Positions 621 to 64,000 of a stretch of DNA of 64,000 nucleotides are shown piece by piece. Made by a program: the position numbers and the translations under genes. The DNA lies in the NCBI GenBank assembly GCA_963729535.1, contig CAVSOL010000017.1, forward strand, positions 370,837 through 434,836, given 5' to 3'. This DNA is from an uncultured Pseudomonadota bacterium. GTDB lineage: Bacteria; Myxococcota_A; Polyangia; Fen-1088. Position 1 is the first letter of the stretch, and every line of letters begins with the position of its first letter. The notes under the pieces are model-generated. The model saw nothing but the letters and a program-made list of their open reading frames with translations. It searched no databases and was not told the origin of the DNA.

Positions 621-629
621 CGTGTCCGG

Positions 630-1058: not shown

Positions 1059-1093
1059 CGCCTCAAGCGTGACACGGGTGGTAGGTTTCGGCC

Positions 1094-1708: not shown

Positions 1709-1787
1709 TCGCAACGCGGCAGGCGGGGCAGAAGCCAATGTTTGCCGTGGATGAGCCGGATGCGCCTGTCCGGGGCATCTTGGTCAC

Positions 1788-2762: not shown

Positions 2763-2847
2763 GTCAGGGACGTGGCTGCCGGCAAAGTCGCGACAGGTTC
2801 GAGCGCGGATTTCGTGATCGTCCGGCGGGCCTTCCCGCATAGAGGGC

Positions 2848-43953: not shown

Positions 43954-45435
43954 ATGGCGGCCACGAAGAAACCGAACATTCTGATCCTTTGGGGTGACGA
44001 CATCGGCATCTGGAACTGCAGCTACTTCAGCCGCGGCCAGATGGGTTACCGAACGCCCAACATCGACCGCGTCGCCAACGAGGGCGTCGCGTTCACCGAC
44101 TACTACGGCCAGCAGAGCTGCACCGCCGGCCGCGCTGCTTTCATCACGGGGCAGAACCCGGTGCGCACCGGTCTGACCAAGGTCGGCATGCCCGGCGCCG
44201 CGATCGGCCTGCAGGCGGAGGATCCGACGATCGCCGAGTTGCTCAAGCCGCTCGGTTACGCCACCGGCCAGTTCGGCAAGAACCACCTCGGCGATCGCGA
44301 CGAGTACCTGCCGACCGTGCACGGCTTCGACGAGTTCTTCGGCAACCTCTACCACCTGAACGCGGAGGAGGAGCCGGAGCTGCCCGACTACCCCAAGGAT
44401 CCGGCGTTCAAGAAGAAGTTCGGCCCGCGCGGCGTGCTGCACTGCACGTCGGACGGCAAGGGAGGGCAGAAGGTCGTCGACACCGGCCCGCTGACCAAGA
44501 AGCGGATGGAGACCATCGACGAGGAGATCACGGACAGGGCGATGGAGTGGATGGAGAAGCAGGCCAAGGCCGATCAGCCATTTTTCCTCTGGTACAACTC
44601 GACCGCGATGCACTTCCGCACCCACCTCGCCGACAAGAACCGGGGCAAGAGCGGGCAGGACGACTACAGCGATCGCATGGTCACGCACGACGAGCAGATC
44701 GGGCAGATGCTCGCCAAGCTCGACGAGCTGGGCATCGCCGACAACACCATCGTCATGTACTCGACCGACAACGGCCCCGAGAACGACACCTGGCCCGACG
44801 GCGCCAACACGATCTACCGTAGCCAGAAGGACACCAACTGGGAGGGCGGCTGGCGCGTGCCGGCGTTCATCCGCTGGCCGGGCAAGATCAAGCCGGGCAC
44901 GGTGCTCAACGGCCTGGTCAGTCACCAGGACATGTTGCCGACGCTGCTGGCGATCGCCGGCGAACCGGACATCAGCAAGAAGCTGCTCACCGGCTACAAG
45001 GTCGGCGACAAGACCTTCAAGGTCCACATCGACGGCGAGAACATGCTGGACTACATCACCGGCAAGGAGAAGGAGAGCCCACGCAAGTCGTTCTTCTACA
45101 TGAGCGACGACGCCGAGGTGATGGCGGTCCGCATGGGCGACTGGAAGATGGTGGTGGGCGAACAGAGAGCCGAGCAGATGCGGGTGTGGATGGAACCGCT
45201 CGACAAGCTGCGCGTGCCGCTGATCTTCAACCTGCGGCGCGATCCATTCGAGCGCGCGCAGCACAACTCGAACACCTACTACGACTGGTTGATCAGTCAC
45301 GCCTTCCTGCTCTACGAGATGCAGGCGCTGGTGGCGGGGCAGATAGAGGGCTTCGCGAAGTACCCGCCCCGCCAGAAGCCGGCGTCGTTCAACCTCGACG
45401 CGGTGATGCGACAGGTGACGGCCCACGTCCAGTAG
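43954..45435 (+). CDS. Arylsulfatase (Cys-type sulfatase)
   Basis: AGGAGG RBS; PNILILWGDDIG, TPNID, SCTAGRAA, GKNHLG and TDNG. Confidence 0.95.
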   Translation: MAATKKPNILILWGDDIGIWNCSYFSRGQMGYRTPNIDRVANEGVAFTDYYGQQSCTAGRAAFITGQNPVRTGLTKVGMPGAAIGLQAEDPTIAELLKPLGYATGQFGKNHLGDRDEYLPTVHGFDEFFGNLYHLNAEEEPELPDYPKDPAFKKKFGPRGVLHCTSDGKGGQKVVDTGPLTKKRMETIDEEITDRAMEWMEKQAKADQPFFLWYNSTAMHFRTHLADKNRGKSGQDDYSDRMVTHDEQIGQMLAKLDELGIADNTIVMYSTDNGPENDTWPDGANTIYRSQKDTNWEGGWRVPAFIRWPGKIKPGTVLNGLVSHQDMLPTLLAIAGEPDISKKLLTGYKVGDKTFKVHIDGENMLDYITGKEKESPRKSFFYMSDDAEVMAVRMGDWKMVVGEQRAEQMRVWMEPLDKLRVPLIFNLRRDPFERAQHNSNTYYDWLISHAFLLYEMQALVAGQIEGFAKYPPRQKPASFNLDAVMRQVTAHVQ

Positions 45436-45453
45436 GCCGGCCTGACGGGCTGC

Positions 45454-46688
45454 ATGGAACAGAGCACGGATGGGGATGCCGTCGCCGAGAAGGTGCGAGC
45501 CTTCTACGAGCGGCATCCTTATCCGCCGCCCGTCGACAGCCTGGAGAAGTACCGCGTCGTCTGGCAGGACCGGAAGCGCCGCCGCGCCGACTTTCATGTC
45601 GCGTGGCCCGGCGGCGCCTACCGCGAAGATCAGTCGATCCTGATCGCCGGGTGCGGGACCTCGCAGGCGGCCAAACACGCGCTGCGCTGGCCGGCGGCGC
45701 GGGTGACGGGGATCGACTTCAGCGCGACCAGCGTCCGTCACACCGAAGCGCTCAAGCGCAAGTACGAGCTCGACAACCTCACCATCCATCAGCTCGCGGT
45801 CGAGCGCGTCGGCGAGCTGGGGATGACCTTCGACCAGGTCGTGTGCACCGGCGTTCTCCATCACCTCGCCGACCCGGCCACCGGGCTCGCGGCGCTGCGT
45901 GACGTGTTGCGGCCGGACGGCGCGATGCACCTGATGGTCTACGCGCCGCACGGCAGGACCGGCGTCTACATGTTGCAGGAGTTCTGCCGGCGCGTCGGCA
46001 TCGCCGCCACCGACGACGGGATTCGCGATCTCGTCGCCGCGCTGGGCGTGCTGCCGCCCGGCCACCCGCTGGGGACGCTGCTGCGCGAGGCGCCCGACTT
46101 CCGGCAGCCCGCGGCGCTGGCCGATGCGCTGCTGCACCCGCAGGACCGCGCCTATTCGGTGCCGCAGCTGTTCGACCTGCTCGCGGCGGCGAGGCTGACG
46201 TTCGGCCGCTGGGTCTGGCAGGCGCACTACAGCCCGCACTGCGGCGTCATGACAGGCATCCCCCACGCGGCGCGCATCGCGCAGCTCCCTGCGCCCGAGC
46301 AGTACGCCGCCGTGGAGCTGTTCCGCGGCACGATGCTTCGCCACAGCGTGGTCGTGTACCGCGACGACGGCGGCGGCGCCGCGCGCCAGCCGGACTTCGC
46401 CGGCACCGCCTGGCAAGGCTACGTGCCCATGCGAATGCCGGACACGATCTGCGTCGAGGACAACCTGCCCCGCGGCGCGGCCGCGGTGCTGATCAACCGC
46501 AACCACACGTACCGGGACATCTATCTGCCGATCGACCGCGGACGACAAGCGGCTGTTCGACCAGATCGACGGCACGCGCACGATCGCCGACATCGCGGGG
46601 CAGGGCGAGCAACAACGGGAGAGCGCGCGCGTCCTGTTCGAGCGGCTGCTACTGGCACGATCAGATCGCCTTGGACGCGTCCGGCTAG
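45454..46688 (+). CDS. Class I SAM-dependent methyltransferase (frameshifts near 3' end)
   Basis: FYERHPYP, ILIAGCGT, FDQVVCTGVLHH and DALLHPQD. Confidence 0.85.
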
Positions 46689-46747
46689 ATCTGTCGAGCC
46701 TCTCCCGCCCGCCGCCGCTATGCTCGCGGCCGAGGGAACGAGGACAG

Positions 46748-47591
46748 ATGCAGCCCGGACGCGAGAGTCAGACGGCCGTGATGGTGTGCATGGCGCGCGC
46801 CATCGCGCACGGCCGGACGACCGCGGGCGCCTTCGCCGATCCGACGGCGCTCGCGCTGTTGCCCGACGAAGCGCGGCGGCGCGTCGAGCGTTTTCGCGCG
46901 GGCGTGCCCAAGGGGCTCCGCGCGCGGCTCGCCTACGAGTTCCTCGACCGGCGGTCGAAGATGATGGTCGTCGCGCACGGTCGCGATCGACGAGGCCGTG
47001 CGCGCCGCCGCGTCCCCGCAGGTGGTCATCCTGGGCGCCGGGCTCGACGGGCGCGCCTGGCGGATGCCGGAGCTGCGCGACGTCACCGTGTTCGAGGTCG
47101 ACCATCCCGATTCGCAGCGCGTGAAACGGGCGCGCGTCGCGGCGCTGGCGCAGGTCGCCCGCGACGTCCGCTTCGTGCCGGTCGACTTCACGCGCGACAG
47201 TCTCGACGACGCGCTGGCGGCGGCCGGCCACGATGCGACGCGCCCGACGACGTGGATCTGGGAGGGCGTGGTCATGTACCTCGAGCTGGCCGACATCGAC
47301 GCGACGCTGTCCGTGATCGCGCGTCGCTCGGCGCCGCGAAGCCGCCTGGTCGTGATGTACTTCCGCCCGGCGCTGATGTCGTGGTTCGTCGGCTTCATCG
47401 TGCGCCGCGCCGGAGAGCCGTTCCGCTCCGCGTTCACGCCCGACCAGATGAGCGCGCTGCTGCGCAAACACGGATTCACGGTCACGCGCGACGAGAACCT
47501 GCCGGCCATCGCCGGCCGGTTGTCAGCCGAGCTCGCCCGAGCGACGCGGCCCATGAAGCACATGCAGATCGCGACCGCGGATCGCCCGTGA
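46748..47591 (+). CDS. LCM-family SAM-dependent methyltransferase (frameshift near 46975)
   Basis: SQTA..ARA, FADP.A, QVVILGAGLDGRAWR, FEVDHP and WEGVVMYL. Confidence 0.87.
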
Positions 47592-47683
47592 CGTCGACCA
47601 CGCCGCGGTTTTCCTCCGGTCTTTCGTGCCGGGGTGATACCCTAGCGGCGAGCGGGGTAGGGATGTCCTCGAGCTGTCTCCAG

Positions 47684-49648
47684 ATGCGCGTCGCGATGAG
47701 GCTCGGCATCGGTCGTTGCCGCGCTGCTGTCGGCCTGCACGCTCGACGGCCCGACACAAGGACCGGCTGCAACAGCAGCAGCGACTGCCTCGGCTGGATA
47801 CATGTGCAACGCCTCCAAGCATTGCGTACGGGCGAAATGGCGGCGGGAACGGTGGGAATGGCGGAGCGGCAACATCGGCACGGGCGACGTCGGTCCTCCC
47901 CCGCGTATGTGCCCGGCCTCCGCGGTCACCGCCTGTCCGCCCGCCGACGCCGGCACCGGTTGCGAGGAGACCGTTTGCGGCGGCGGGCGCATCTGGCAAG
48001 AGGGGATAATGAGGTCGGTGTTCGTCCCCTATCAAATCGATAGATCCGCAGGGAGATGTTCTCGCCGGCCTACGTGACCGCGATTCGCGCGGGCGCCGAA
48101 GCGTGGAGCCGGGCGAGCGCGGGCTTCGTGAGGTTCCAGGAGTGCACCGTTCCTGCGCAGGCCCGTTCATCTCTGTCGTGCCCGACGACGGCGACGGCAT
48201 CACCAACCCGGAGTCAACGGGGGAGCAGCTCTTGCCCATGCCCGTCGTGGGCAGCGACGATCGGATATCGCCGCACCGGATCGCCCACCAGTGGGGTCAC
48301 GCCCTCGGTCTGGCGCACACGTATGAGCGCGCGGATCGCGATCGTTACATGCGGTTCGATCCGGCAGATCTGGTGTCCACCCGGCGGTTCCGGGTTGCCG
48401 CCCCGCTGCGCGGCTGGCCCGGGGCCCGTACGGGCTGCCCGCCGTCACGACCGGCACGTTCGGCGTGTTCGACGAAACATCGAAGATGAACGGCTTTCTC
48501 AAGCGAAGGCCTGTGCGCCGCGGAGCGAGCCCGACGCAGGATTCCAACGAGCCGACGATCGGCGACGTCTCCGCCATGGCGGAGCTGTTCTTCGGGGTGA
48601 CGTCGGCTGGTCGCCGTTCCGGCCCATCGGGCGATCGGTGTCACCCACCCAGCCGCTCGACTACCAGCTGGCGCCGGGCGTCGATCCGGTGGGCTCGCCT
48701 GCGATCGCGGCGGTCAATGAGTCGACGCTATGCCAGCCCGGAGATCTTCGTCCGTGGAACCGACGACCGCGTCTACACGACGACGCGAAGCGATCCACTA
48801 CCTCACCACGGCGGAGTGGGTCGAATGGACGCCGATCGTGGAGCGGCGTGGACGGCGATCCCGCCGCGGTGTTTGCGACGCTTGTCGCCCAGAGCAGACG
48901 CTGTTTCTCGCCGTCCGATCCCGGGAGGACGGGAACATTCGCCTGCGCGCCCGCCGCGGAGGCGAGTGGGGCAGTGGAAGGTGCTCGGAGCGCCGCCCGC
49001 GGGCGCCGCGTCCGCGCCCGCGCTCGCGTCGGAGAGCCCTGTATTCGCTCGCAGTCTTCGTGCGCGGGGGCGACGGGCTCATCTATTGGCTGTCCTGCAG
49101 GGATGCGCCGGAGGACTGCGACGATCAGCGCTGCGCAAGCCCGAGCGCCTGGACGGCGCTCCCGCCGCCACCATCGGGCATCTTCGTGGGCAAGCCGTCC
49201 GCGGTCTGGCTGGCTCAGCAAACCGGGCTCACGGTCGCCGCGATCCGCGACGATCGCGTCGCCATGTACATCACCGGCATCAACAGCGGCGGGACCGCGT
49301 GGCGTGCTCGCCGACCACCTCAATGTCGATCTCGATCCCGACGATCCGGATCCCGGCGTCGCGATCGCGATGATCCGCAGACGCCCGGCGAGCTAGCCTT
49401 CTTTGCCCGCAACCGACGGCGCCTTCTCGTCAACGACACGCTGGCAACAGACGTACTTTCCTATCGGCGGCGTGCTCGCTTCGCCCCCCGCCGCGGTTGC
49501 CATCTACCATGGCCCTGTCCGGACGGACGTCGCCGCGATCATCGACGACCACGGGCGTCCCGGCGTCTGGTGGCGATTCAACGACGCAGGACTACAAGGC
49601 CCCCTGCTACGACGACCCGGGCGCGTGCGCCCAGTGCGGCGCGCGTGA
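47684..49648 (+). CDS. Astacin/M12-like metalloprotease domain (HQxxHxxGxxH) plus lectin-like beta-propeller repeats; many frameshifts
   Basis: VPY.I, AHQWGHALGLAHTYERADRDRY; repeats IFVRGTDDRVY and VFVRGGDGLIYW. Confidence 0.6.
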
Positions 49649-49651
49649 ACG

Positions 49652-50305
49652 CTACTGCTTGCTCAGGATGATGTCGCCGACGACCTTCATCATCGTCCCC
49701 GAGTCGAACTCGAGCAGGTGCAGCGAAGAGCCCTTCACGCAGTAGGGGCTGGTCTGCGCGCCGTCGCTCCCGTGACCGTCAGCGTCGTCCCGGACGTCGC
49801 CCATGTTCCGGTGTCGTTGATGGTGTCGATGGTCTGCGCCAACGTGCAGGTGCATGCGCTCGAGCCGGCGCAGGTCACCGCGGTGACGCCGTTCGTTCCG
49901 ACGAGGGCGCCCTGCAGGACCGCGCCCAGGTCAGACGCAGCTCGCGCCGTTGGTGCAGGCTGCCGGGAAAATGAGGTCGAGCGTCGAGTCCACCGTCAGC
50001 GTGCCCGTGAACATCATGTCGGCGGTGAAGGCGAGCGTCCCGCTAGGCGTCAGGCTCACGTTACCGAGCGACGCGTCCGGACAGGAACCCGCGACCCCGG
50101 CCAAGAACTCCATGTTCAACGTCGCCTGGTCGATGCAGGAGCTGCTCGCCTGCCAGTTACCCACGACGTCGCCGCCGCATGGAGCTCGTGCCGCACGGTT
50201 CCGCCGTCGCCGCCGCACCCCGCCGCCGCGAACGACAGCGCGAGCCCCGCGAGCGTCCGACACCAACGACCTTGATTTCCACACCGCAACGAGCTCCGAT
50301 GTCAT
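49652..50305 (-). CDS. Hypothetical Cys-containing lipoprotein (frameshifted)
   Basis: PCGGDVVGNW..C and C-terminal PYCVKGSSLHL in different frames. Confidence 0.6.
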
Positions 50306-50382
50306 GGGCTCGACGCTCGCGCGAGTCGACCGCGCGTCAAGCGGGCGGCCGTCACGACAGGCGCCAGGCGTTCAGGTCGCGG

Positions 50383-51244
50383 TCACGACAGATGGCGGAC
50401 CTTGTCGGGATTGCGGACCGAGTAGATCGCCACCACCGCGCCGCCCGCGATCTCGACCGCCAGGGTCTCTGTCCCCTGCGCCGTCTGGAACACGAAGCCC
50501 GGTAGGCCGTTGATCGTCGCCGGCTCCGCGCGCTGGGCGGAGAAGGCGCCTTCGCCCTTGGCCCGCAGACCGGCGAAGAACCGCAGGATCCTGTCCTTGC
50601 CGACGATCGGATTCAGGGCCGTGCGCCGCTTGCCGCCGCCGTCGGAGTAGAACACGGCGCCGTCCGCGAGCAGGCGCGCCAGGCCGCCCACGTCGCCCGT
50701 CGCGGCGGCGATCACGAAGGCGTCCGCGAGCTTGCGGGCCTCGGTGTCGCTCGTCGGGTAGCGCGCCCGATCCTGGCGGACGTGCTCGCGGGCGCGCGCG
50801 GCGAGCTGGCGGCAAGCGGCCTCGCTGTGGTCGAGCGTCTCGCCGACGGCCGCGTAGTCCAGGTCGAAGACGTCGTGGAGCAGGAACGCGGCGCGCTCGA
50901 GCGGCGACAGGCGCTCGAGCGCGAGCAGCAGCGCGACCGACAGATCATCGGCCAGCGTCTGGGCGGGCGCGGCGACGACCGGCTCGGGCAACCACGTGCC
51001 GACGTAGTGCTCGCGCCGGTGGCTGGCCGACTTCATGCGATCGAGGCACAGCCGCGACACCACGCGCGCGAGGTACGCGCGCGGCTCTGCGATCGCCGCG
51101 CGGTCGACCTCGCGCCAGCGAAGGAACGCGTCCTGGATGACGTCCTCGGACTCGGCGACCGAGCCGAGCATGCGATACGCCAGGCCGGTCAGGAACGACC
51201 GGTGCGGCTCGAAGTCCGCCACGCCGTCGGACGCGCTCGGTCAT
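50383..51244 (-). CDS. ECF41 (SigJ-like) sigma factor with SnoaL-like C-terminal extension
   Basis: LAYRMLGS..EDVIQD, YVGTWLPEP, DGGG and VRNPDK motifs. Confidence 0.93.
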
Positions 51245-51801
51245 GCGGCCGCCTCGGCCGCGAGCTTGCGCGGCGACACCGCCTGGCCCGCGACCACGAC
51301 GCGCGTGCACGCCTTGCCGTGGCCGAGCGCGTATTTCAGCGTCGGGTAGAGCTGCGCGCCCATGATGCCGAACGCCAGCGCGAGCAGGGCGCGCGGCCCC
51401 CAGCGCCTCACGATCTGCTCGCGGAGCGCATCGGCGACGTTGCCGTCGCGCGCGAGCACGGCCCGCGCGAACCGGACGGCGAGGGCGACGTCCGGCGACA
51501 TCGCTGCCTCGTCGCCCTTCACGACCGCGGCGATCGTGGCCGCCGGGACGCCCGCGCGCAACGCGAAGCCCACTCCGAGCTGCGTGCACGGCCCGCAGTC
51601 CGCCTGAATCGACGACGTCAACGTCGCCGCGACGTACACGTCGGTCGGGACGTCCTTCCGGTACCGGCCGAGGCCGGTGGCGCGCGCGAACTTCACGAAC
51701 CCTCCGACGTCGGTGTCGATCACCGCGTGCATGTACGACGCATCGTACCCGTGCTCGCGCTCGAAGGCGTTCAGTCTGCGATGAAACAACCACTTCAACA
51801 T
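51241..51801 (-). CDS. Carboxymuconolactone decarboxylase/AhpD-like protein
   Basis: DCGPC motif and YPTLKYALG; adjacent to ECF41. Confidence 0.8.
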   Translation of the reverse strand: MLKWLFHRRLNAFEREHGYDASYMHAVIDTDVGGFVKFARATGLGRYRKDVPTDVYVAATLTSSIQADCGPCTQLGVGFALRAGVPAATIAAVVKGDEAAMSPDVALAVRFARAVLARDGNVADALREQIVRRWGPRALLALAFGIMGAQLYPTLKYALGHGKACTRVVVAGQAVSPRKLAAEAAA

Positions 51802-51821
51802 GGGACCCTCCTCGCCCCTAC

Positions 51822-51848
51822 GACGAGGCAGCGGGGGCCGTTGTGACA
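51822..51848 (-). promoter_or_regulatory. ECF41 target promoter
   Basis: Minus strand reads TGTCACA-N16-CGTC, the ECF41 consensus, directly upstream of the CMD-sigma operon. Confidence 0.85.
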
Positions 51849-51916
51849 TGGCCGGCGAAGGATGGGTAGGTCGGGCGGGCGGCGTGCCCGGCTTGTCGCT
51901 AGAGTAGCGTCGATCG

Positions 51917-53641
51917 ATGGGCGATCTCCTCAGTGAGCTCGAGGTCCTGGCGGTCGACGGCCAGGCGAGCGGCAGCACGCCGGCTCACGGCGATCTGCTC
52001 GAGCTCGGTTGGGCGCGCTGCTCGGCCGCGGGCTGGCCGGTCCGGTCCGCAGCCGCTGGATCGTGCCGCGGACGGAGCGGCGCGATCCCGTGGCCGGTGC
52101 GCGAGCTGACGGGATGGTCCGAGGCGAGCGTCGCGGACGCGGTCGACGAGCGCAGCGCCTGGACGGAGCTTCGCGCCGACCTCGCGCCGGCGAGCCGGTC
52201 GGTCGCCGCTGGCGCCGGCGCCGACGGTGATTCACTTCGCGCGTTTCGAGCTCGCGTTCCTGCGCGACCTCTGCCGGCGCGTCGATGGCAGCGACGCAGC
52301 TTCCCGCTGGACGTCGTCTGCCTGCACGCCATCGCGGTACGCCTGTTCCCCGATCTGCCGCGCCGGAACATCCGCGCGCTGGCCGGCTACCTCGGCCATT
52401 CGCCGCAGCTCGTGCGCCGCACCACCGGCCACGTCGAGGCGACGGCGTTCATCTGGCAGGCGCTGCTGCCGCTGCTGGAGCCGCTGTCGGTGCGCACGTG
52501 GAGCGCGCTCAAGGCCTGGCTCGACGAGCCCGCGCCGCGCCCGCGCCGCGGGCGGCTGGTTTACCCGCTCGCCGCTCGATCGGCGGCGCGCGCTGCCGGA
52601 CCGTCCGGGCGTGTATCGCTTCCTGCGGCGCAGCGGCGACGTCCTCTACGTGGGCAAGGCGGCGAGCCTGCGGAAGCGCGTGGCGGGCCACTTCGCGGGC
52701 CGGGGCGCCGCGGGCGAGCGCGGCCTCGAGCTGCTCACGCAGGTTCACGACGTGGACGTCACCGAGACCGCGAGCCAGGTCGAGGCGGCGCTGCTCGAGA
52801 CCGACGAGATCAAGCGCCTGGATCCGCCTTACAACGTGCAGCTGCGCGCCGCCGGCCGGCAGGCCTGGTACGCGTCGGCCGATCTGCGCGACGCGACGCC
52901 GGCCCGCGACAGCCGTGCATCGCATCGGCCCGCTGCCGTCGGCAGCACGCGCTGCTTCCCCTCGCGGCGCTGACGGCGCTGGTCGATGGGGCGGGCCCGT
53001 CGCCCGCGCTGTCGGCCGCCGCGCTGGCCGTGCCCGCCGCGTTCGCGCCGCCGCCGGCGCTGTTCGACGAAGGGTTTCGGGCGTTCGTGTCGGACTGCCT
53101 GTCCGACCACCTGGGCGGCGCCGAGCCGACGGCCGCGGCGCGACTGGCCCGGGCGTCGCGCGCGCTGTGGCTGCTGCGCGGGCGAGCGGAGCCCGACGCC
53201 GACGCCGAGGCCGACGCCGCTGGGCCCGGCCGACTGGGACCTGGCGCGCGTCCGCCGCCGTCTGGAGCGCACCTTGACGCAGACCGGCCTGCTCGTGCGG
53301 CGCACGCGCCTGCTGTGCCTGCTCGCGGACGCGACCGTCGCGTTCCGCGAGCGCGCCATGCCCGCGGCGCGTGCGCTGGTCGATCGGCGCCGGCGACATC
53401 CGCGAGCGGCACGACATCGACGAAGTCATGGCCGTGGCGGGCTGGCCCGCGCGCGCGCCGCGAGCCCACCACGAGCGCCAGGCCTGCTTCGATGCCGCCG
53501 CTTACGACCGGCTGCGCGTCCTCATCACCGAGCTCCGCCGCGTGCAGGACGAGGGCGGCGAGACCGCCCTGCGCATCGGCGGCCACACCTTTGCCCCCGA
53601 TCGCCTGGCGCGCCTGATGCTGGCGATCTCGATCTGGGTGA
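51917..53641 (+). CDS. DEDDh-like exonuclease / GIY-YIG (UvrC/Cho-like) fusion, multiple frameshifts
   Basis: VLAVDGQASG..GDLLELG, IHFARFE, LPDRPGVYRF..VLYVGKA.SLRKRV and EAALLETDEIK..PPYN. Confidence 0.78.
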
Positions 53642-53681
53642 TTGGCAGTTGGGTGCGCGAGCCCCACAATCAAGCGGCTCG

Positions 53682-55104
53682 ATGGACTTCCCGACAATCA
53701 GCGGCGACAGCAAGCGCACGGCCGAGGTCACGGCGAGCGCGCCGCTCGTCGCCGGCCGGGATGGGACGCAGGTCCGCGCCGCCTTCGGCGTCGCGCTGCA
53801 CATGCACCAGCCCACCGTCCTCGGCGACGGCGACCGGATGACCGCGCCGCTGATCTCGAATCTGCAGCACATGTTCGAGCACCAGGGGGAGGGCGACAAC
53901 CACAACGCGGCGGCGTTCCTGGGCTGCTACGGGCGCTCCGCCGATCTCGTCGGCGCGCTGGTCGAGCGCGGCCGCCAGCCCCGGTTGATGCTCGACTACT
54001 CGGGCAACCTGCTCTGGGGGCTGGCGCAGATGGGCCAGACGGACGTGCTCGCGGCGCTCCGGCGCACCACCGAGCCCGCCCTCGCGCCGTCGATCGAGTG
54101 GCTCGGCACCATGTGGTCGCACGCCGTGGTCCCGTCCACGCCGGTTCCCGATCTCAAGCTTCACATGCTGGCGTGGCGCCACCACTTCGCCGCCCTGTTC
54201 GGACTTCCCGCGCTGGCACGCGTTCGCGGCTTCTCGGCGCCCGAGATGCACCTCCCCATTCACCCCGACGTCTGCTTCGCCTACGTGCGCGCCCTGCGCG
54301 AGTGCGGGTACCGGTGGCTGATGGTCCAGGAGCACACCGTCGAGAACGCCGACGGGACCCCGCTCCGCCAGCCGCGCCTGCCGCACCGCCTGGTGGCCCG
54401 CAACTCCGAGGGCGACACCGAGTCGATCACGGTGCTCGTCAAGACGCAGGGCTCGGACACGAAGCTGGTTGGTCAGATGCAGCCCTTCGGCGAGGCGAAG
54501 TCGCTCGACCGGCAGCCGCTCGGCAGGCCACGCAGTCCCGCCCTACGCGCTTCAGATCGGCGACGGAGAGAACGGCGGCGTCATGATGAACGAGTTCCCG
54601 AGCGCCTATCAGACCGCCTTCGACCAGCTCGGCCCGCGCGACGGCGGCGTGGCCGCGCTGAACGGCACGGAGTACCTGGAGGCTGTGGCGGCGCTGGGCG
54701 TCGACGAGCAGGATTTCCCCGCCGTGCAGCCGGTGTCACAGCACCGCATCTGGCAGGAGGTCACTGCCGCCGGGACCGGGCGCCGCGGATCAGGCCATCG
54801 CCCGCCTGCGCCTGCGTGATCCGTCGTTCAACCTCGACCGCGCGTCGTGGACCAGCGATCGCAGCTGGGTTGCAGGGTACGACAACGTGATGGATCCCGT
54901 GTGTGCGCCTGAGCGCCCGCTTCCACGAGCGCTGGGACCAGACGGGGGACGGCGCCCGCGGCGAGCCCGCCTACGCAGCGCTCACTGCTCTATCTGCTGC
55001 TGTCGCAGACCAGCTGCTTCCGCTACTGGGGCCAGGGCTATTGGACCGACATGGCGCAGGAGATCTGCCGCCGCGGGCTCGAGTCCTTGGACGCCACAGC
55101 GTAG
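53682..55104 (+). CDS. Glycoside hydrolase family 57 protein (frameshifted)
   Basis: ALHMHQP, MLDYSG.L, GFSAPEM, DGENGGVMMNEFP and TSCFRYWG. Confidence 0.82.
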
Positions 55105-55198
55105 TCGCGCGCGCTCGACCGTCCGTCTCGCGACGCTCATCCGTCGCCGGTTGTCTGCGCGTCGATAATTCGCTGGCGTCCGCGCGCGGTTGGCGTCC

Positions 55199-55256
55199 AC
55201 CATCTATCCAGATGGTAGACGGATGGTGTCCGGATGGTAAGGGATGGTGCGATGGC
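55199..55256. promoter_or_regulatory. GATGGT repeat array, putative RHH operator
   Basis: ACCATC at 55199 (inverted); GATGGT at 55211, 55222, 55233 and 55243; GATGGC at 55251. Confidence 0.65.
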
Positions 55257-55654
55257 GAGTAGAGGACGACGAGAAGACCGAGAAGATCACGATCAACCTG
55301 GGCCTGGTCGATCTCGGCCAGATCGATCTGCTGGTCCAGGAAGGCTTCTACGCCAACCGCACCGACTTCATCCGCTCCGCGATCCGCGCCCAGCTGGCCA
55401 CCCGTGCGGCGGCGGTGGAGCAGAGCGTCGCCCGCAGGACGCTGGTGCTGGGGAGCGAGCACTTCACCCGCGCGCAGCTGGAGGAGCTGCGCACGGCCGG
55501 GCAGACGGTGCAGATCCGCGTCCTCGGTCTGGCCACCATCGCCGACGACGTCTCCCCGGAACTCGCGCTGCAGACGATTGCCTCGGTCGAGGTGCTGGGC
55601 GCGTTCCGCGCCAGCGCCGCGGTGAAGGCGGCGCTCGCATCGCGCATCGTCTGA
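55244..55654 (+). CDS. CopG/ribbon-helix-helix transcriptional regulator
   Basis: EKITINLGLVDLGQIDLLVQEGFYANRTDFIRSAIR. Confidence 0.85.
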   Translation: MVRWRVEDDEKTEKITINLGLVDLGQIDLLVQEGFYANRTDFIRSAIRAQLATRAAAVEQSVARRTLVLGSEHFTRAQLEELRTAGQTVQIRVLGLATIADDVSPELALQTIASVEVLGAFRASAAVKAALASRIV

Positions 55655-55680
55655 GCGCAGCGCCGAGAAAGGATCACCCG

Positions 55681-56751
55681 ATGGACACAGCAGCGACTGG
55701 CCCGAATGTTCGAAGCGACCCGGCTGACGAGCCGAGCACGCCTCGCCGAGGCGACAGCGCTCTGCTGCAGGCGCGGCTGCCGGCGGCAGCCGCTTGCCCG
55801 ACATGCAAGCATTGCTGTCTCGGCTCCCGCAGCGGACTGCCCCGCATGCCCGCCGGTGACGAAGCCTCGTCCCGGGCCGGTGCTCCCCGGCCGGTTCCTC
55901 GACCTGCTCGTACGCCAACGCGGCCGGGGAGCGCACCTACAAGCTGTACGTGCCCGACCGGGCACACCGGTCAGGCCGTCCCTCTGATCGTGATGCTGCA
56001 CGGGGGTACGCAGGACGCCGATGACTTCGCCGCCGGCACCCGGATGAACGAGCTGGCCGAGCGCCACGGATTCCTGGTCGCCTACCCCGAGCAGTCGCGC
56101 GCGCGCCAACCCGATGGGGTACTGGAACTGGTTCCAGCCCAAAGACCAGCATCGCGGCAGCGGGGAGGCGTCGCTCATCGCCGGGCTCACCGAGCAGATC
56201 ATCGACACGTACGCCGTCGACGCCCGCCGCGTCTACGTTGCCGGCTTCTCCGCGGGCGGCGCCATGGCCGCGGTCATGGCCACCGCCTACCCCGACGTGT
56301 ACGCAGCGGCGGGCGTCCATTCCGGCCTGGCCGCCGGGGCCGCCCACGACATCCCCTCCGCGTTCGCCGCGATGGCGAAGGGCGCGCCCGACGCCGGGAG
56401 CCCGCCCGTGCCGCTGATCGTCTTCCACGGCGACGGCGACCCGACCGTCGACCACGTCAACGCCGACTGCCTGGTCAGGGCCGTCCTGCCGGACGCCGGG
56501 GATCGGCAGCGGCCCGCTCACGACCACGGGGACGGGTGCCCGGCGGCCACGCGTACACCCGCCGCGTCTACGCCGACCGCGACGGAACGCCGCTGGTGGA
56601 ACAGTGGACCATCCATCAGGCCGGGCACGCCTGGTCGGGCGGGAGCCCGCACGGCACGTACACCGACCCGCAGGGGCCGGACGCCTCGACCGAGCTCGTC
56701 CGCTTCTTCGCCCAGCACGCCCACCGTTACGCCCGGCAACGCGCCGCCTGA
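55681..56751 (+). CDS. PHB depolymerase/LpqC family esterase (frameshifted)
   Basis: [38 protein letters not shown] and GHAWSGG. Confidence 0.87.
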
Positions 56752-56761
56752 TCCCGGTGGC

Positions 56762-58411
56762 CTAACGCGCGAGCGCGCTGGCCACGATCGCGCGCGCTTC
56801 GTCGAAGATCGCGGCGAGGTGGTCGGCGCTGACCATGCTCTCGGCGTAGATCTTGTAGACGTTCTCCGTCCCCGACGGGCGGGCGGCGAACCAGCCGTTG
56901 TTGCTCGCGACCTTGAGGCCGCCGATGGAGGCGCCGTTGCCCGGCGCGCGCGTCAGCTTGGCGACGATCGCGTCGCCGGCGAGGGTCGCGGCGGTCACGG
57001 CCTCGGGCGCGAGCTTGCCGAGCGCCGCCTTCTCGGCGGGCGTGGCGGGCGCGTCGACGCGCGCGTAGTACGACGTCCCGAAGCGCTCGCGCAGGCGCTC
57101 GTAGTGGACGCCGGGATCCTGGCCGGTGACGGCGGTGATCTCCGCGGCGAGCAGGTCGAGGACGATGCCGTCCTTGTCGGTGGTCCACGTGCCGCCGTCG
57201 CGGCGGAGGAAGCTGGCGCCGGCGCTCTCCTCGCCGCCGAAGCCGAGGCTGCCGTCGCACAGGCCGGGGACGAACCACTTGAAGCCGACCGGGACCTCGC
57301 GCACCTCGCGACCGAGCGCGCGCGCGACCCGGTCGATGAGCGTGCTCGACACCAGCGTCTTGCCGATGGCGGCGCCCGCCGGCCAGCCGTCGCGGTGCGT
57401 GAACAGGTAGTCGATCGCGACGGCCAGGTAGTGATTCGGGTTCATGAGGCCCGCGGTCGGCGTGACGATGCCGTGGCGATCGGCGTCGGTGTCGTTGCCG
57501 AACGCGACCGCGAAGCGATCGCGCAGCGCCAGCAAGCCGGCCATCGCGTAGGGGCTGGAGCAGTCCATCCGGATCTTGCCGTCGTGATCGAGGCGCATGA
57601 ACGCGAAGCGCGGATCGACGGCCTTGTTGACGACCGTGAGGTCCAGGCCGTAGCGCTCGGCGATGCGCGCCCAGTACTGGACCGACGCGCCGCCCATCGG
57701 GTCGGCGCCCAGCTTGACGCGCGCGCGCGCGATCGCCTCGACGTCGATCACCTTCTGTAAGTCATCGACGTACGGCGTGAGGAAGTCGTACACGGTGGTG
57801 GTGGCCGCGGCCTGCGCGCGGTCGTAGGGGATGCGCCGGATGCCGGCGCCGTCCTTGAGCAGCTGGTTCGCGCGCGCCTGGACGCCGTCGGTGATGTCGC
57901 TGTCGGCGGGGCCGCCGTGCGGTGGGTTGTACTTGAAGCCGCCGTCGCGCGGCGGGTTGTGCGACGGCGTGATGACGATGCCGTCGGCGAGGCCCGCGTC
58001 GCCAGGCGGGAGCGTGGTGTTGAACGCGATGATCGCGCGCGACAGCGCCGGCGTCGGCGTGTACTGCCCGTCGGCCTGGACGCGCGTGTCGACGCCGTTC
58101 GCGGCCAGCACCTCCAGCGCCGTTCGCAGCGCGGGCGCCGAGGCGGCGTGCGTGTCCGCGCCCAGGAACAGCGGCCCGGTGATGCCGGCGCGCGCGCGGT
58201 ATTCGCAGATCGCCTGCGTGATCGCCAGGATGTGGGCTTCGTTGAACGCGCCGTCCTCGGCGGCGCCGCGGTGGCCGCTGGTGCCGAAGGCAACCTGCTC
58301 GCGCGGGTTGTCGGGGTCGGGGCGGCGGTCGTAGTACGCGGCGAGCAGGCGGTCGACGTCGATCAGGACGTCGGCCGGCGCGGGCTTTCCGGCGAGCGGT
58401 GACAGCGGCAT
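56762..58411 (-). CDS. pgm: Phosphoglucomutase (alpha-D-glucose-1,6-bisphosphate-dependent)
   Basis: [26 protein letters not shown] and RPSGTE. Confidence 0.96.
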
Positions 58412-58477
58412 GGCCCCAAGGCTATGCCCGACGGGGCGATCGGGGAAGGGGGCGGTGGTCCGATCCGAGTCAGGCCG

Positions 58478-60545
58478 TCATTCGCCGCGGCCACGGTAGT
58501 TGCGGGCCTGCTTGATGAGCAAGCGCGGCGGCAGCCCGGGCTGCGGGTTGTCCTCGTCGTCGAACTTGAAGTCGACCTCCAGGCCGTAGAAGCCCAGGTT
58601 GCCGCTCGCCGGACCGTAGGCCGGCGAGAAGCGTTTTTGAATCGCGTCCAGCGCGGTCGCGAGCTCGAGGATCTGCGTCGGCGACAGGACAGTCTCACCG
58701 TCGCGGATCAGGTTCGAGTGGCTCAGGTAGGTCGTCGTCGCGTTGCCGCCGCTGAAGTAGATGAGAATTTCGTCGCTGGTGATGCCGGGGGGCGGCGCGA
58801 CGACCTCGGCCGAGCCGCCCCACTGGGCGTTGACGTAGAAGCCGGGCTCCAGCCCCGACGGATCGAAGATGTTGGCGGTCACCGCCACCCCGTTGGCTTC
58901 CTCCGCCCTGAAGTTGTGGTGGACGAGCAACGCCATGCCGATCCTCTTGTGGTCGATGCTGTGGTACGAGCGCTCCTCGAACGTCCGGAAGTACCACACG
59001 CCCGCCCACGTCTTGCGGATCGCTTGCAGCACGCTGCACGCGTCGTTGCTGTCCGTGTTGCACGTCGATCGATCCACGTCCCAGTTCGCCGGATCGCCTG
59101 TGTGCGAGTCGTAGCAACCGGCGCACAGGAAGTCCTCCTGGTCCTCGGCGTTGGTGCTGGTCCGGAACCGCATCGTCAGCCCGGGAAAGTCCGCTTCGAG
59201 CTTCGCCTTCAACGCGGCCGAGAACGCCGGGTCCACGGGCGCCGTCTGCATGTATTCGCGCAGGGACGCGAGCTGCGTGTCCCTCACCGCCGGGTCGTTC
59301 TGGAACGCCGGGTCCGCCAGCATCGCGTCGATACGGTCGTAAAACCCGTTCTGCCGCATGAACTGGTCGTAATAGAACACCGGAATCGCGAACGCCTTGC
59401 GGACCGGTACCTTGTCGGTCTTGGCGAGGATGCCGTAGTTCGCCGCCTTGCCGCCGTAGGCCAGGATCGCCTTCTTGATCTGGTCGCCCAGCCCCACCTT
59501 GCTGTCGGGCAAGTCCGCTCTCGTCGACCAGGTCTTCGACGTTCTTGAGCGCCGTCTGGGTCAGGTCCATCGCCGGTATCTGCACCGGAGCCGGCCTGTT
59601 CTTCAGCCACCAGTCGTCGGCAGCCTGCTGGCTCACCTCGCTGACGGTCCATTCGAAAGCCCCCACCTTCAGCTCCACCCACTGCCCGTCCAGCGCCTGA
59701 AGCATCGCGTTCGTCGTCGCGCCCTTCAGGCCCATGTTCGGCGTGTGTCGGTTCTGCGCGAGCACGTTGATGTGGGCCAGCGGCGTCTGGAACTCCTGCG
59801 TGATCATCCCGACCACCACGGAGATGTCGTTCGGTACGTGGTCGAGGACCACGATGTCGCGAAAGCTCAGGTACTCCGTCTCCAGGCTGGCCGCCGTCAC
59901 GAACCGAAGCTTGCCCATCGACGTGCCGAGGTTCAGCGGCTGGTAGTCGATCCCCGCGAAGATCTCGTTCGTCGTCTTGATCGTCACGCTCGCCGGCAGC
60001 GTCGCGGCCACCGCCTCGATCGCCTCCGACGTCGGATGCAAGGCCAGCTTGCCGCCGAAGAACGCCTTGTCCTTCACCGCTGCGAAGAGCTGCGTGATCA
60101 TCTCCTTGCTGGCGGTGTCGTAGGGCGACAGCTCCAGCGCCCAGATCTGCGGCCCGCTGTAGTACGTCACCGCGCCGAGGATGAAGCGCCGATCCAGCGA
60201 GTAATATTCGGTCCGGTTGAACTCACTCAATGACGGCACGGGCGGGTGCGCCGGCGCCGACAGATGCTTGGACGCGAACTCGTAGTGGATCGGGTACTTC
60301 TGGCTGTTCTGGAAGTAGAGCTTGTTGTCCAGCCGGTCCAGGACCACCTTCCCCGAGCGCGCCCCGGGGATCGATGAATCCAGCGGCTGCGACGACAGCA
60401 TCTCGAAGTCTGCCTGGCACCCGACGCTGTCCAGGTAGTCCGGAGCCACGTCGCCCGAGGGGATCTCGCACGTCCAGGTCTTCTCCCCGCCGCCGCAGCC
60501 GGCGAGCACGACCGCGAGCAGGGTGGCAGTCAGCGAAGCTTTCAT
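58478..60545 (-). CDS. Lipoprotein with PEP-utiliser phospho-His domain and PPDK/PEP-synthase nucleotide-binding domain (frameshift near 59515)
   Basis: Lipobox LAGC; GMITQEFQTPLAHINVLA; YGGKAANY, FRTSTNAED..AG.YDS, NGVAVT, EVDFKF and IKQAR. Confidence 0.8.
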
Positions 60546-60552
60546 GTTCCAC

Positions 60553-61577
60553 ACTTGAGATCAGGCCTGCAGATCTGGCCCGTGGGGCACTCTGCGTCCA
60601 CGGCGCAGGAGATAATACAATTTCCCGCGCTCAGGCAGAGCGTCACTTCGCGTGGGATGACCGAGGCGACCTGGAACTCGACGCAGCCGGGCGCGATCGT
60701 CGTCGAATCGACGGTCCGGCGGGTCAACGTCAGCTCGGGATAGCCGGCCGTGCCTCGCTCGATGAGCTGGTCGATCAGCGTCGCCGGTATCTCGGCGGAT
60801 CCGTCGTCGGCGAAGTCGCATTCGATGCGGGCCGCGACGCCGCCGTGGTGGGCGATGTCCAGCGACGCCAGCGATGCGGGAGCCGCCCGGTTGAGCTGGC
60901 CCCACCCAGGTCACCGACGCCGCCTGGCCCCGCATGATGGCCGGGGGGGTATCGAATTGCAGCGGCGCGATGCCGCGGCCGGCGAGGGTGAAGCCGGGGA
61001 GATCGCCTCCCGCGGCGGTGAGCGTGAGAGACGTCCCGGCTGCCGCGGGGGGATACGGCGTTGCCACGGACGCGTAGTAAGTGGAGTTCGTCGCCGCGTA
61101 GGTCACCGCGACGGGGGATGAACCAACGCCTGTCAGCGTGACATCGCCGACGCCCCGGAAGCGTGGCTCGTCGATGCACTGGTTCTGGCCGGCGCAGATC
61201 TGCGGATTCGTGCAGGCCGGCGTACATGCCAGGGTGGGACCCACGATCAGGCGACACTCGCCGGCGGTCGCGACCTGCTGCCACACGTAGGCCGGGTGCA
61301 CGGCGCTCCGGACTCCTCCGGCGATCGACGTGGTCATGAGGTCCTCGACCAGCTCGACCGTGAACGTTCCGAGGCGGGTTGCGTCGGTGCACGGCTGGCC
61401 GCTGGAGGAAGAGCCTCCGGTGTTGCCGGATCCCCCGCCGCCCGATCCGCCTCCTCCTGTCGGGCCGCCGCCGCCGCTGCTACAGCCGGCGCCGAGGAGG
61501 GTCCAGGCAACGAGGACGGTCAGCGAACCGAGCGTGACCAAACGGGCGGAGAGATGGCGATGGATCGGGGGAACCAT
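60553..61577 (-). CDS. Hypothetical Cys-containing lipoprotein (frameshifts near 60870-60905)
   Basis: Lipobox GAGC and Gly linker; IAHHGG..RIECDFADDG; C-terminal Cys module. Confidence 0.68.
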
Positions 61578-61588
61578 GGTGGCCGGCC

Positions 61589-61606
61589 ATGCACCCACCA
61601 TGCCGG
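61589..61606 (-). promoter_or_regulatory. sigma54 (-24/-12) promoter for the 61577/60545 operon
   Basis: Minus strand CCGGCATGGTGGGTGCAT matches GG-N10-GC. Confidence 0.55.
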
Positions 61607-61667
61607 TCATAGATGTTACGCAATCGTTGCAGAAGGGAGACAGTGGCCTACCCCGAACCACGACTGG

Positions 61668-61703
61668 GTGTACGAAATCTGCGCAGTGTACGAAGATTGC
61701 GCC
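61668..61703. promoter_or_regulatory. Tandem 18-bp repeat, putative enhancer-binding-protein sites
   Basis: GTGTACGAAATCTGCGCA / GTGTACGAAGATTGCGCC in the divergent intergenic region. Confidence 0.55.
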
Positions 61704-61751
61704 GCCCGAGCGGACTCGACGCGCCGCCAGGGGACCTTACAATCGCCGCGC

Positions 61752-62225
61752 GTGGAGCCTCGTCGACTTCGTCTTGCGCGGGTGTTGGTGCTCGCCGCCG
61801 TCGCGGGCAGCGCTGTGGGGGTGGCCGGCTTCACCTTCGTCTACGCAGAAGGGCTGAGCTACTTCTCCACCGACCCCAAGGCCTGCGCGAACTGCCACAT
61901 CATGAATGACCAGTACGCGTCGTGGACGAAGGGGCCCCATCATCACACCGACGCTCGCTGCGTTGATTGCCACCTGCCTCACGACACTGTGGAGAAATAC
62001 CTCGCCAAGGCGTTGAACGGCTATCACCACTCGAAGGGGTTCACGTTGCAGGACTTCCACGAGCCGATCCTGATCAAGCCGCGGAATGCGGCGATCCTTC
62101 AGGACAACTGCCTGCGCTGTCATGGTGATTTCGTGCACGACGCGCTGGCGCCCGTCGGGCGCTTCCAGGAAGCCGGGCGTTGCGTCCATTGTCACCGCGG
62201 CAGCGGGCACGGCGCGCGCGGCTGA
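61752..62225 (+). CDS. nrfH: Cytochrome c nitrite reductase small subunit (tetraheme quinol dehydrogenase)
   Basis: N-terminal TM; CANCHIM, CVDCH, CLRCH and CVHCH. Confidence 0.93.
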
Positions 62226-62245
62226 AGCCGCGAGAGACCTTCGAC

Positions 62246-63757
62246 ATGAGCGATACCAAGACCGAGACCACGAAGGATCGTTCCAGGCGGCGGCGGGTCG
62301 CGTTGACCATCGGGGTGGTGGCGCTGTCCGCAGGCGTCGCGTTTGCTGCGACGGCGCTGCTCACCAACATCTTCCAGCGCAAGCAGGAGGCGAAGAATCC
62401 CTATCTGCGCCTGGTCGAGATCAGCGAGGACACCACCGATCCAGCGCCGTGGGGGATGAACTGGCCACGCCAGTACGACGGCTACCGCCGCACCGCCGAC
62501 ATCAGCCGCACGCAGTACGGCGGATCCGAGGCGCTGCCCGACGAGAAGATCGAACGCGATCCGTGGCTGAAACGACTGTTCGCGGGCTACGCGTTCGCGA
62601 TCGACTACCGCGATCGGCGCGGCCACGCCCACATGCTCGCCGACCAGGAGCAGACGAAGCGTGTGACGACGCTTCCGCAGCCCGGCAATTGCGTGCACTG
62701 CCACGCGTCCGTGATCCCGACCTATCGCCGGCTCGGCGGCGGCGACGTCCTCAAGGGATTCTCGGCCGTCGGCACCATGACGTACGCGGCGGCTCACGCC
62801 GAGGTGGTCAAGACCGGCTCGTCGAATCCGGTCGCCGGCGGGACCGAGATCAAGTTCGCGCACGTCGACGGCGCGCACCCGGTGAGCTGCGTCGATTGCC
62901 ACGACGCCAAGCTGATGCAGCTGCGCGTGACACGTCCGGGGTTCCTGCTCGGCATCCGCGCGCTCGCCGAGAGCAGCGAGCCCACGCCGCACATCCAGAG
63001 CATCGAGCGCTGGCGCAAGTCGGACCGCGCCCGTCCCTACGATCCCAACGTCGATGGCTCACGCCAGGAGATGCGTTCGTTCGTCTGCGGCCAGTGCCAC
63101 GTCGAGTACTACTGCGGGCCGAAGACGACGTTGTTCTTCCCCTGGAACCAGGGCCTGAAGGTCGAGCAGATCGAACGCACCTACGACAACTACAAGTTCC
63201 CCGACGGCCATCGTTTCTACGACTGGCAGCACGCCGAGACCGGCGCCGAGGTGCTGAAGGCGCAGCACCCGGAGTTCGAGCTGTGGAGCCAGGGAATCCA
63301 CGCGCGCTCGGGGGTCGCCTGCGCGGATTGCCACATGCCCTACCAGCGCGAAGGCGCGATGAAGGTCTCCGATCACTGGGTGCGCAGCCCGTTGCTCAAC
63401 GTCAGCCGCGCCTGTCAGGTCTGCCATCCGTACGCTGAGGCGGAGATCTTGGCGCGGGTCGCCGCGATCCAGGAACGCACGCACGCGTTGCTCCAGCGCG
63501 CGGCAACCGCGTCGATCGACATGCTCGACGCGATCGTGGCGGCGAAGAAGACCGGCGCGGCCGCTGACCGCCTGGCACCGGCGCTCGCGCTGCAACGAAA
63601 GGCGCAGTGGCGGATCGACTTCGTCGCCGCCGAGAACTCGATGGGCTTTCACGCGCCGGCGGAAGCGGCCCGCATCCTGGCCGAGTCGATCGACTTCGCG
63701 CGCCAGGCGGAGCTCGCCGCGCGGACGATCGCTCCGGCAACGCCGACAACCCACTGA
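62246..63757 (+). CDS. nrfA: Ammonia-forming cytochrome c nitrite reductase NrfA (pentaheme, CxxCH-type first site)
   Basis: [49 protein letters not shown] and AENSMGFH. Confidence 0.95.
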
Positions 63758-63774
63758 CGTGGGGCGCCTCCCTC

Positions 63775-63935
63775 TTACAGGCCGAGCGCCGAGATCATCT
63801 GCTGGCCGTAGCGCATGCCGAGCTGGCGCTGACCGGCGAGGCTGATGATCCACTCGTAGCCCGTGGCCCAGTGGTTGTCCGGCGGCAGCGTCCACCCGGG
63901 ACGGGGATTCCCGGGCCCACCGGATGCGATCACGT
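63775..63935 (-). CDS. 3' end of a probable SGNH/CE6-type (sialate O-acetylesterase-like) esterase, truncated or garbled
   Basis: C-terminus SLAGQRQLGMRYGQQM resembles CE6/SASA C-termini; upstream sequence is disrupted. Confidence 0.35.
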
Positions 63936-64000
63936 CGCGGGGGCGGCAGAAAATTGCCGGGCCGGCGAATTTTCTGGCCGACCCCCGCACGACGGCGCAC

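Follow-up and report, generated by a model that had tools for sequence, protein, structure and literature searches.

A predicted lipid-anchored histidine-swivel dikinase family with a partner lipoprotein in Myxococcota, and its link to polyphosphate and CotH genes

The stretch analysed here, 64,000 nucleotides of contig CAVSOL010000017.1 (positions 370,837 to 434,836; assembly GCA_963729535.1; hereafter the window), comes from an uncultured bacterium of the Myxococcota (lineage Polyangia; Fen-1088), and within 58478-61703 it carries, on the minus strand, an operon that consists only of a gene for a Cys-rich lipoprotein, the partner, and a gene for a dikinase-like lipoprotein. We favour, with moderate confidence, the reading that the dikinase-like protein is an exported, lipid-anchored phosphotransferase of the histidine-swivel type, that it forms a complex with the partner lipoprotein, and that across its family it is part of polyphosphate/CotH envelope gene sets. 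A preliminary description made from the sequence alone had singled out this gene; its observation is partly confirmed by the present analysis and its interpretation is partly supported.

The open reading frame (ORF) listing holds the dikinase gene as two minus-strand ORFs, 58695..60554 and 58478..59512, which are the two halves of a single gene. The first is protein-like over ~345 residues, with the signal peptide, a ..LAGC lipobox and the motif TPLAHINVLA, and the second is 344 residues long. Once a single extra base at 59511..59513 is left out, the two join through a switch of reading frame inside GGACTTGCCCGAC (~59506-59516) into one gene at 58478..60545 (ATG 60545-60543, TGA 58480-58478) of ~688 codons, in agreement with the protein of ~690 residues proposed before. 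Its signal peptide leads into the lipobox L-A-G-C (60495..60545; Cys codon 60495-60497), so that this N-terminal stretch ends in ..VVLAGC. There follow an N-domain of ~170 residues (59970..60482), with a Cys pair, C29 and C46, both invariant, and a conserved surface predicted to bind the partner; a swivelling phospho-histidine domain (59610..59969), whose candidate catalytic His, that of TPLAHINVLA, lies at 59772-59774 (residue 261 when numbering from the GTG at 60554); and a C-terminal PPDK-type ATP-grasp, or nucleotide-binding, domain (58481..59455). The preliminary description had left room for the halves being separate genes in clean genomes. They are not: relatives of the window genome have single open frames of 648-681 residues with the same layout, a paralogue of the gene lies on contig C18 of the source genome, and intact full-length homologues of 648-716 residues, again with this layout, are common and occur on complete Sorangium chromosomes.

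The ATP-grasp assignment is carried by a Pfam match of the C-terminal half to PPDK_N (PF01326, E 2.1e-19), by Foldseek on the model of a homologue and by invariant motifs. The homologue used (P0004) is 66% identical to the N-terminal half of the window protein and gave a full model with pLDDT 91.4 and pTM 0.88; in a Foldseek search of the PDB its ATP-grasp alone was matched, with rifampin phosphotransferase (RPH, 5hv1, E 1.1e-13), HpeI (9goj), PEP synthase (2ols) and PPDK (1kbl) among the matches. The comparison with GWD and RPH structures that had been suggested thus returned RPH, and no solved GWD structure surfaced in the fold searches of either the P0004 model or the window N-half model. 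The NCBIfam models of PEP synthase, RPH and PigC/RedH also match the ATP-grasp only, and far under their cut-offs (63.4 versus 598 for NF005057, 59.3 versus 739.75 for TIGR01418 and 50.5 versus 999 for the RPH model NF041857). For the N-terminal half of the window protein, the model has pLDDT 91.1, with values above 90 in the N-domain part. Searched against 48,161 chains with VIA-align, its residues 196-315 align to phospho-His swivel domains, and Foldseek concurs. Pfam profiles recognise this region less well: the GWD phospho-His model PF22973 is reached only below threshold in the window protein (E 0.039, 14 bits versus a cut-off of 27, residues 246-310), three of the six family members tested showing any match to it (E 0.0016-0.31, all under the cut-off), and PF00391, which the preliminary description had named, has no match in the His region of the window protein and a weak one in P0110, at residues 357-384, outside the His region of that protein. 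The N-domain has no Pfam, NCBIfam or usable ESM Atlas match, and its residues 25-195 have no listed fold match, the fold-search lists being filled by the swivel domain. The resulting order, a His domain followed by the ATP-grasp, is the one found in GWD and PWD, unlike that of PPDK, PEP synthase and RPH; it was noted in the preliminary description and is the same in all full-length homologues.

These proteins form a large, uncharacterised family that is found mostly in Myxococcota. When the N-terminal half was searched for longer proteins, 2098 of the 7996 scored candidates matched at E <= 1e-3, mostly proteins of 650-720 residues with a C-terminal PF01326 domain; where a name is annotated, it is 'PEP/pyruvate-binding domain-containing protein', 'pyruvate, water dikinase' or 'hypothetical protein'. 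The sources include cultured Archangium, Cystobacter, Melittangium, Pyxidicoccus and Vitiosangium. The same half searched alone against 1.84 billion cluster representatives gave 1774 matches at E <= 1e-3, 884 at <= 1e-10 and 180 at <= 1e-30, and here too the N-domain and the His domain are usually N-terminal in proteins of ~650 residues. A scan of species genomes found at least 595 relatives among the 600 pattern matches listed, those on complete Sorangium chromosomes included.

We aligned 112 members, namely 109 of 120 listed proteins and three from loci L002, L004 and L005; the long forms P0001, P0002 and P0110 were left out, as were P0007, P0043, P0062, P0074, P0081, P0088, P0100 and P0102, which are short or have no N terminus. 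In P0004 numbering, the residues invariant in all 112 are the lipobox Cys, C36, C53 and H268, the candidate catalytic His, together with G374 and K376 of GGK, R471/S473/N475/E477/D478, K670 and K686/Q687/R689. The ATP-grasp motifs GGK, R-S-x-N-x-E-D and K-Q-x-R are thereby conserved, and GGK and R-S-S-..-E-D align with their equivalents in solved PEP synthases and RPH. Every one of the 112 also has a hydrophobic stretch ahead of the lipobox Cys, which is preceded by a median of 20 residues. Of the 120 listed proteins, 94 match a stricter regular expression for the lipobox and 118 match the His motif. The family therefore has the lipoprotein signature, a signal peptide running into a lipobox with an invariant Cys, and its members are predicted substrates of signal peptidase II (SPase II). 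The residue following the lipobox Cys is Gly in 58 of the 112, Ser in 28 and Lys in two. In Myxococcus, Lys at +2 is taken as an inner-membrane retention signal.

Several members depart from the standard length. P0002 (1202 residues) is a family member fused to a C-terminal Pel9A-like beta-helix, and in P0200 and P0266 (~1000 residues) lamin-tail domains (LTD) are fused N-terminally to the dikinase; the LTD domain is elsewhere also fused or adjacent to CotH. Weak segments resembling CarboxypepD_reg or a type IX secretion system (T9SS) tail occur in some of the long members (P0002, P0200, P0266, P0227 and P0245, the last two of ~800 residues). The extensions of P0200 and P0266 had been candidates for a fusion of the partner to the dikinase, and this was rejected: the partner profile fails to match them (hhalign probabilities 0.6 and 0.3), and they are LTD domains. 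P0001 (982 residues) scores 679 bits, far above what is expected at 57% identity, and its ATP-grasp begins at residue 671, so that it may hold a duplicated N-terminal half.

The partner gene lies immediately upstream of the dikinase gene, at 60542..61577 (minus strand; ATG at 61577 or 61611). Its frame ends in ..K-C-G-T-TGA, and this TGA overlaps the dikinase ATG as ATGA at 60542-60545, which implies translational coupling and bears out the proposed co-transcription with a second lipoprotein. Homologues of the partner belong to a Cys-rich lipoprotein family for which there was no Pfam or NCBIfam model and for which ESM Atlas gave only unnamed Myxococcota clusters. Such a homologue is present in 38 of the 45 relatives' loci that were fully flanked (defined below), and in L002, L004, L005 and L011 it lies downstream of the dikinase rather than upstream. 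At L011 (G000:C18:131345-135286, 70-3876 on the plus strand), the dikinase paralogue and a partner-like lipoprotein share a single frame of 1268 codons, either a true fusion or an indel artefact.

Complex prediction favours direct binding of the two proteins. The cognate Archangium pair was modelled, with residues 28-672 of P0021 and residues 40-318 of the L012 partner each given its own alignment, and three runs scored 0.00, 0.74 and 0.65, a median of 0.65 compared with 0.00 for the best of three controls. Of 80 solved complexes 58 attain a score of 0.65, as do 2 of 110 mismatched pairs, a calibration that holds only roughly here given the custom alignments. In the model, the partner has pLDDT >= 80 and the runs share at least 43% of contacts. 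The predicted interface is formed, on the dikinase side, by N-domain residues 77-186 and ATP-grasp residues 551-638, and on the partner side by a Cys-rich loop (92-107), residues 116-119 and a conserved HHGG stretch (221-227).

The preliminary description had also raised a functional tie to a polyphosphate/CotH locus, and this is supported in the relatives of the window gene rather than in the window itself. We compared 80 loci from the species-genome scan together with window positions 44001-64000, 2024 ORFs in all, taking ORFs of at least 100 residues from stop to stop whose third-position G+C is at least 0.10 over the locus mean, and matching them by blastp with E <= 1e-10 and an alignment that covers half or more of the shorter ORF. 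The central gene was retained in 72 loci, of which 45 were fully flanked, with 5 kb or more on the upstream side and 6 kb or more on the downstream side. Among these 45, a DUF1554-like lipoprotein is a neighbour in 29, a HlyD-like adaptor with a weak phytase-like/DUF3616 C terminus in 18, CotH in 14, DUF4956 in 12, an LTD protein in 11 and the polyphosphate polymerase VTC in 9, all of which are lower bounds because the ORF filters can miss genes. At least one of VTC, DUF4956 and CotH lies within 10 kb in 24 of the 45, and all three in one. The genes often form a single compact operon, and VTC and DUF4956 often come straight after the dikinase. In L024, L054, L060 and L065 the partner, the DUF1554-like lipoprotein, the dikinase, VTC, DUF4956 (not in every case) and the HlyD-like adaptor follow one another on one strand in abutting frames. 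A separate sample also shows VTC near the gene: the distance is 4 kb in G009, a genome of the same genus whose homologue is the closest one found in the relatives that were searched, and ~2 kb in G037. As a rough yardstick, the source genome has 11 places that match VTC, DUF4956 or CotH in 7.85 Mb, and a random 22-kb stretch would thus hold one ~3% of the time. The fusions of LTD to the dikinase and of the dikinase to a Pel9A-like beta-helix also favour the polyphosphate link.

Some related arrangements in the source genome (G000) stand outside these counts. On contig C10 (543480-546573), two DUF1554-like genes accompany a partner-like gene, and on contig C26 (263234-274746) DUF1554-like genes flank a VTC gene, in both places with no dikinase gene. 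A broken CotH-family gene (G000:C17:436623-437560, plus strand) lies shortly beyond the end of the window, on the strand opposite to the partner gene and ~5 kb upstream of it; it is in two pieces, the second of which has one TGA within it.

We propose that the two lipoproteins of the operon act as a complex outside the cytoplasm, the second gene encoding a dikinase-type histidine-swivel phosphotransferase. A nucleotide would be bound in the C-terminal PPDK-type ATP-grasp, the invariant swivel His would carry a phosphoryl or pyrophosphoryl group, and a second substrate, bound to the surface that the N-domain and the partner lipoprotein form, would exchange this group with the enzyme. The site of action is most likely the outer membrane or the cell surface, because Lys at +2 is found in just 2 of 112 members, provided that the retention rule applies. 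In Myxococcota, the family may be regarded as a component of 'envelope phosphate' gene sets of VTC, DUF4956, adaptor and CotH, and from this membership its phosphoryl economy is probably tied to polyphosphate that is made inside and passed outwards. For the second substrate, the likeliest candidates are a polymer of the envelope or matrix and the partner protein. The window copy would then be a stripped version of such a set, reduced to partner and dikinase.

A number of observations weigh against this proposal. At the level of the enzyme, the best PF22973 score, 18.4 bits (P0021), falls short of the curated cut-off of 27, and we infer the role of the N-domain only from its conservation and its predicted interface, its fold having been searched within the N-half model only. 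One of the three complex runs scored 0.00. Export, lipidation, nucleotide binding, catalysis and phosphorylation of the His are likewise points that we infer, as are the donor, the acceptor and the way in which the reaction runs, and ATP is not known to be at hand in the periplasm or extracellularly. At the level of the neighbourhood, none of VTC, DUF4956 and CotH was seen in 21 of the 45 fully flanked loci, and the counts overstate independent support, since closely related organisms, among them several strains of Sorangium, supply many of the loci. In the window, VTC (21631-22425) and CotH (25420-26544) are 32-37 kb from the dikinase gene, and DUF4956 was found in the source genome on contig C27 only. 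Among whole genomes, VTC is present in all nine with a strong family match, yet also in 20 of the 32 others; it occurs in 20 of the 24 genomes of the window's genus, and co-occurrence at this level is uninformative because VTC is so common there.

The donor problem has a speculative answer, which we hold to be improbable. Polyphosphate that VTC produces and that leaves the cell via DUF4956 and the adaptor might, rather than ATP, charge the swivel His outside the cytoplasm, after which the enzyme, held on its partner lipoprotein, would either phosphorylate an envelope polymer directly or convert AMP to ATP for the exported CotH kinases encoded with it. If true, this would make the protein the energy-coupling enzyme of bacterial polyphosphate export, allowing ATP-type chemistry where there is no ATP. 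The narrower alternative, to which we give slightly less weight, is that the enzyme runs dikinase chemistry in reverse as an extracytoplasmic converter of polyphosphate to nucleotide, with polyphosphate charging the His and AMP in the ATP-grasp becoming ATP for the exported CotH kinases. The partial reactions of PPDK-type enzymes are reversible, the residues of the nucleotide site are invariant although no extracellular ATP is expected, and in several lineages the dikinase shares one operon with VTC, DUF4956, the HlyD-like adaptor and CotH. Furthermore, the question of a donor arises equally for CotH kinases, which are exported too (10.1101/768473, PMC12345266). On the other hand, binding of polyphosphate by the N-domain is a supposition, the trio is not nearby in the same 21 loci, the operon of the window copy has neither CotH nor VTC as a neighbour, and, by the accessible portion of one report, the Firmicutes CotH-VTC-DUF4956 sets function with no such dikinase (10.1101/768473).

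The fold matches and the neighbours bear on another alternative, that the protein is an exported small-molecule phosphotransferase of the RPH kind, which modifies or inactivates an antibiotic, a signal or a xenobiotic outside the cell, the partner being unrelated to catalysis. The high Foldseek rank of HpeI, a split phenol-type dikinase subunit, next to RPH would fit such a role. We nevertheless regard it as quite unlikely compared with the envelope phosphotransferase that we propose: the domain order differs from that of RPH, the rifampin-binding domain has no match, the NCBIfam RPH model stays at 50.5 bits versus 999, and the genes conserved nearby have to do with the envelope, polyphosphate and kinases, not with resistance.

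Both genes of the operon are frameshifted in the window sequence, the partner gene appearing in tblastn as two pieces (61394-60873 and 60904-60551) around an extra base at 60871-60873, and this could suggest a true pseudogene, with the partner gene dead as well. We compared 58478-61703 with Logan contigs of four soil metagenome runs (X1-X4) from four separate studies. Two contigs bridge the extra base of the dikinase gene (59511/59513), one from X3 with 684 nt and a depth of 31 of 31 and one from X1 with 258 nt and a depth of 2.68 of 2.68, and it is missing from both. That of the partner gene is missing from all three bridging contigs (X2, X3 and X4), of which the X4 contig (350 nt) has just one further difference from the window. 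In addition, both frames are fully open once the one base is discounted, the C-terminal frame has a third-position G+C of 0.92, and further genes in 30000-64000 are split over frames, for example an esterase-like gene (55234-56751 and 56114 onwards). Because the extra bases are absent from the bridging contigs and other window genes are fragmented in an assembly of 29 contigs that is 79% complete, a pattern of indel errors, we read both frameshifts as single-base insertion errors of the assembly and the gene as intact in nature, and decay of the operon as very improbable. As for RNA, one metatranscriptome run contained 0.05 of the words. Finally, ATP-grasp enzymes are normally cytoplasmic, but that this is an ordinary ATP-dependent dikinase of the cytoplasm, its signal peptide a mis-called start or a non-functional relic, is hardly credible with the lipobox Cys and hydrophobic stretch in 112/112 members, two more invariant Cys after the lipobox, a start fixed by the ATGA overlap, lipoproteins as operon partners, and relatives fused to domains of exported proteins (LTD, beta-helix and T9SS-tail-like segments).

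The region upstream of the partner gene does not bear out the sigma54 promoter that had been suggested for the operon. The consensus TGGCAC-N5-TTGC occurs nowhere in 61560-61800 at two or fewer mismatches, and the whole window has 45 matches compared with 65.6 expected; with up to four mismatches searched, the best local match has three and lies at or inside the start of the coding region, and was rejected. The tandem enhancer-like repeats mentioned with it are real, as a direct repeat of 17 nt at 61668-61684 and 61686-61702 (82% identity, 18-nt period), and may serve as a site at which a regulator of either neighbour binds; they are assignable to neither gene, since the intergenic region in which they lie separates the partner gene from a divergently transcribed, nrfH-like gene. 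A sigma70-like match in the same region faces away from the partner operon. The divergent genes (~61770-63757, plus strand) encode a small multi-haem protein and a multi-haem protein of 525 residues with several CxxCH motifs, a pair that looks like nrfH and nrfA (cytochrome c nitrite reductase).

On the other side, pgm follows 66 nt after the dikinase gene, with no terminator-like site on that strand between them. As a functional neighbour it was rejected, its protein matching none of the 80 other loci, so that its proximity is the coincidence that had been allowed for. The proximity of a GH57 gene, also mentioned earlier, did not hold: PF03065 matches lie only on contigs C5 and C10 of the source genome, and none is on the contig of the window.

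The significance of the family lies in the combination of a large, conserved set of dikinases with a lipoprotein export signal, intact catalytic residues and a dedicated partner lipoprotein. In many genomes the dikinase gene is in one operon with those for a polyphosphate polymerase of the yeast type, the membrane protein that partners this polymerase and CotH kinases that are exported, which points to a phosphorylation system beyond the bacterial cytoplasm with a concrete candidate for its energy source. The question of what the CotH/VTC/DUF4956 set does, and what its donor is, may thereby be brought within reach of simple assays on soluble proteins.

The closest known counterparts of the set's other members lie in Gram-positive bacteria, where cotH, a polyphosphate polymerase (VTC) gene and a DUF4956 gene form an accessory set beside pel loci (Whitfield et al., bioRxiv 10.1101/768473). 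In Streptococcus intermedius, deletion of the CotH-like and membrane genes lowers Pel-dependent aggregation (PMC12345266). The same three families adjoin the dikinase relatives in Myxococcota. Unlike them, the Gram-positive sets have, in the available portions of both reports, neither a dikinase-like enzyme nor such a lipoprotein partner (10.1101/768473, PMC12345266), and the window copy is not adjacent to the set.

Histidine-swivel dikinases are textbook enzymes of the cytoplasm or the plastid, and the literature, supplementary files not covered, gave no description of an exported, lipoprotein or bacterial GWD-like dikinase. The plant and algal GWD and PWD resemble the family in having a phospho-His domain ahead of a C-terminal PPDK_N domain and the substrate-side region at the N terminus. 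They differ in that the N-terminal 195 residues of the family have no Pfam match at E <= 0.1 to 1, and thus no CBM45 or CBM20 starch-binding module, and in that they are plastidial and act in the context of starch, whereas the family consists of predicted exported lipoproteins with an obligate-looking partner and polyphosphate/CotH neighbours. RPH of Listeria monocytogenes (PDB 5hv1/5fbs) is cytoplasmic and is built of an ATP-grasp, a rifampin-binding domain and a His domain, an order that is reversed in the family; the rifampin-binding domain has no match there, the alignments spanning ~100 columns (the swivel) or ~350 columns. PPDK and PEP synthase differ in having the opposite domain order and a PEP/pyruvate TIM barrel, for which the family has no Pfam match. 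As judged from its sequence, the enzyme would work like a dikinase, yet by their defining features it is placed outside GWD/PWD, PPDK/PEP synthase and RPH.

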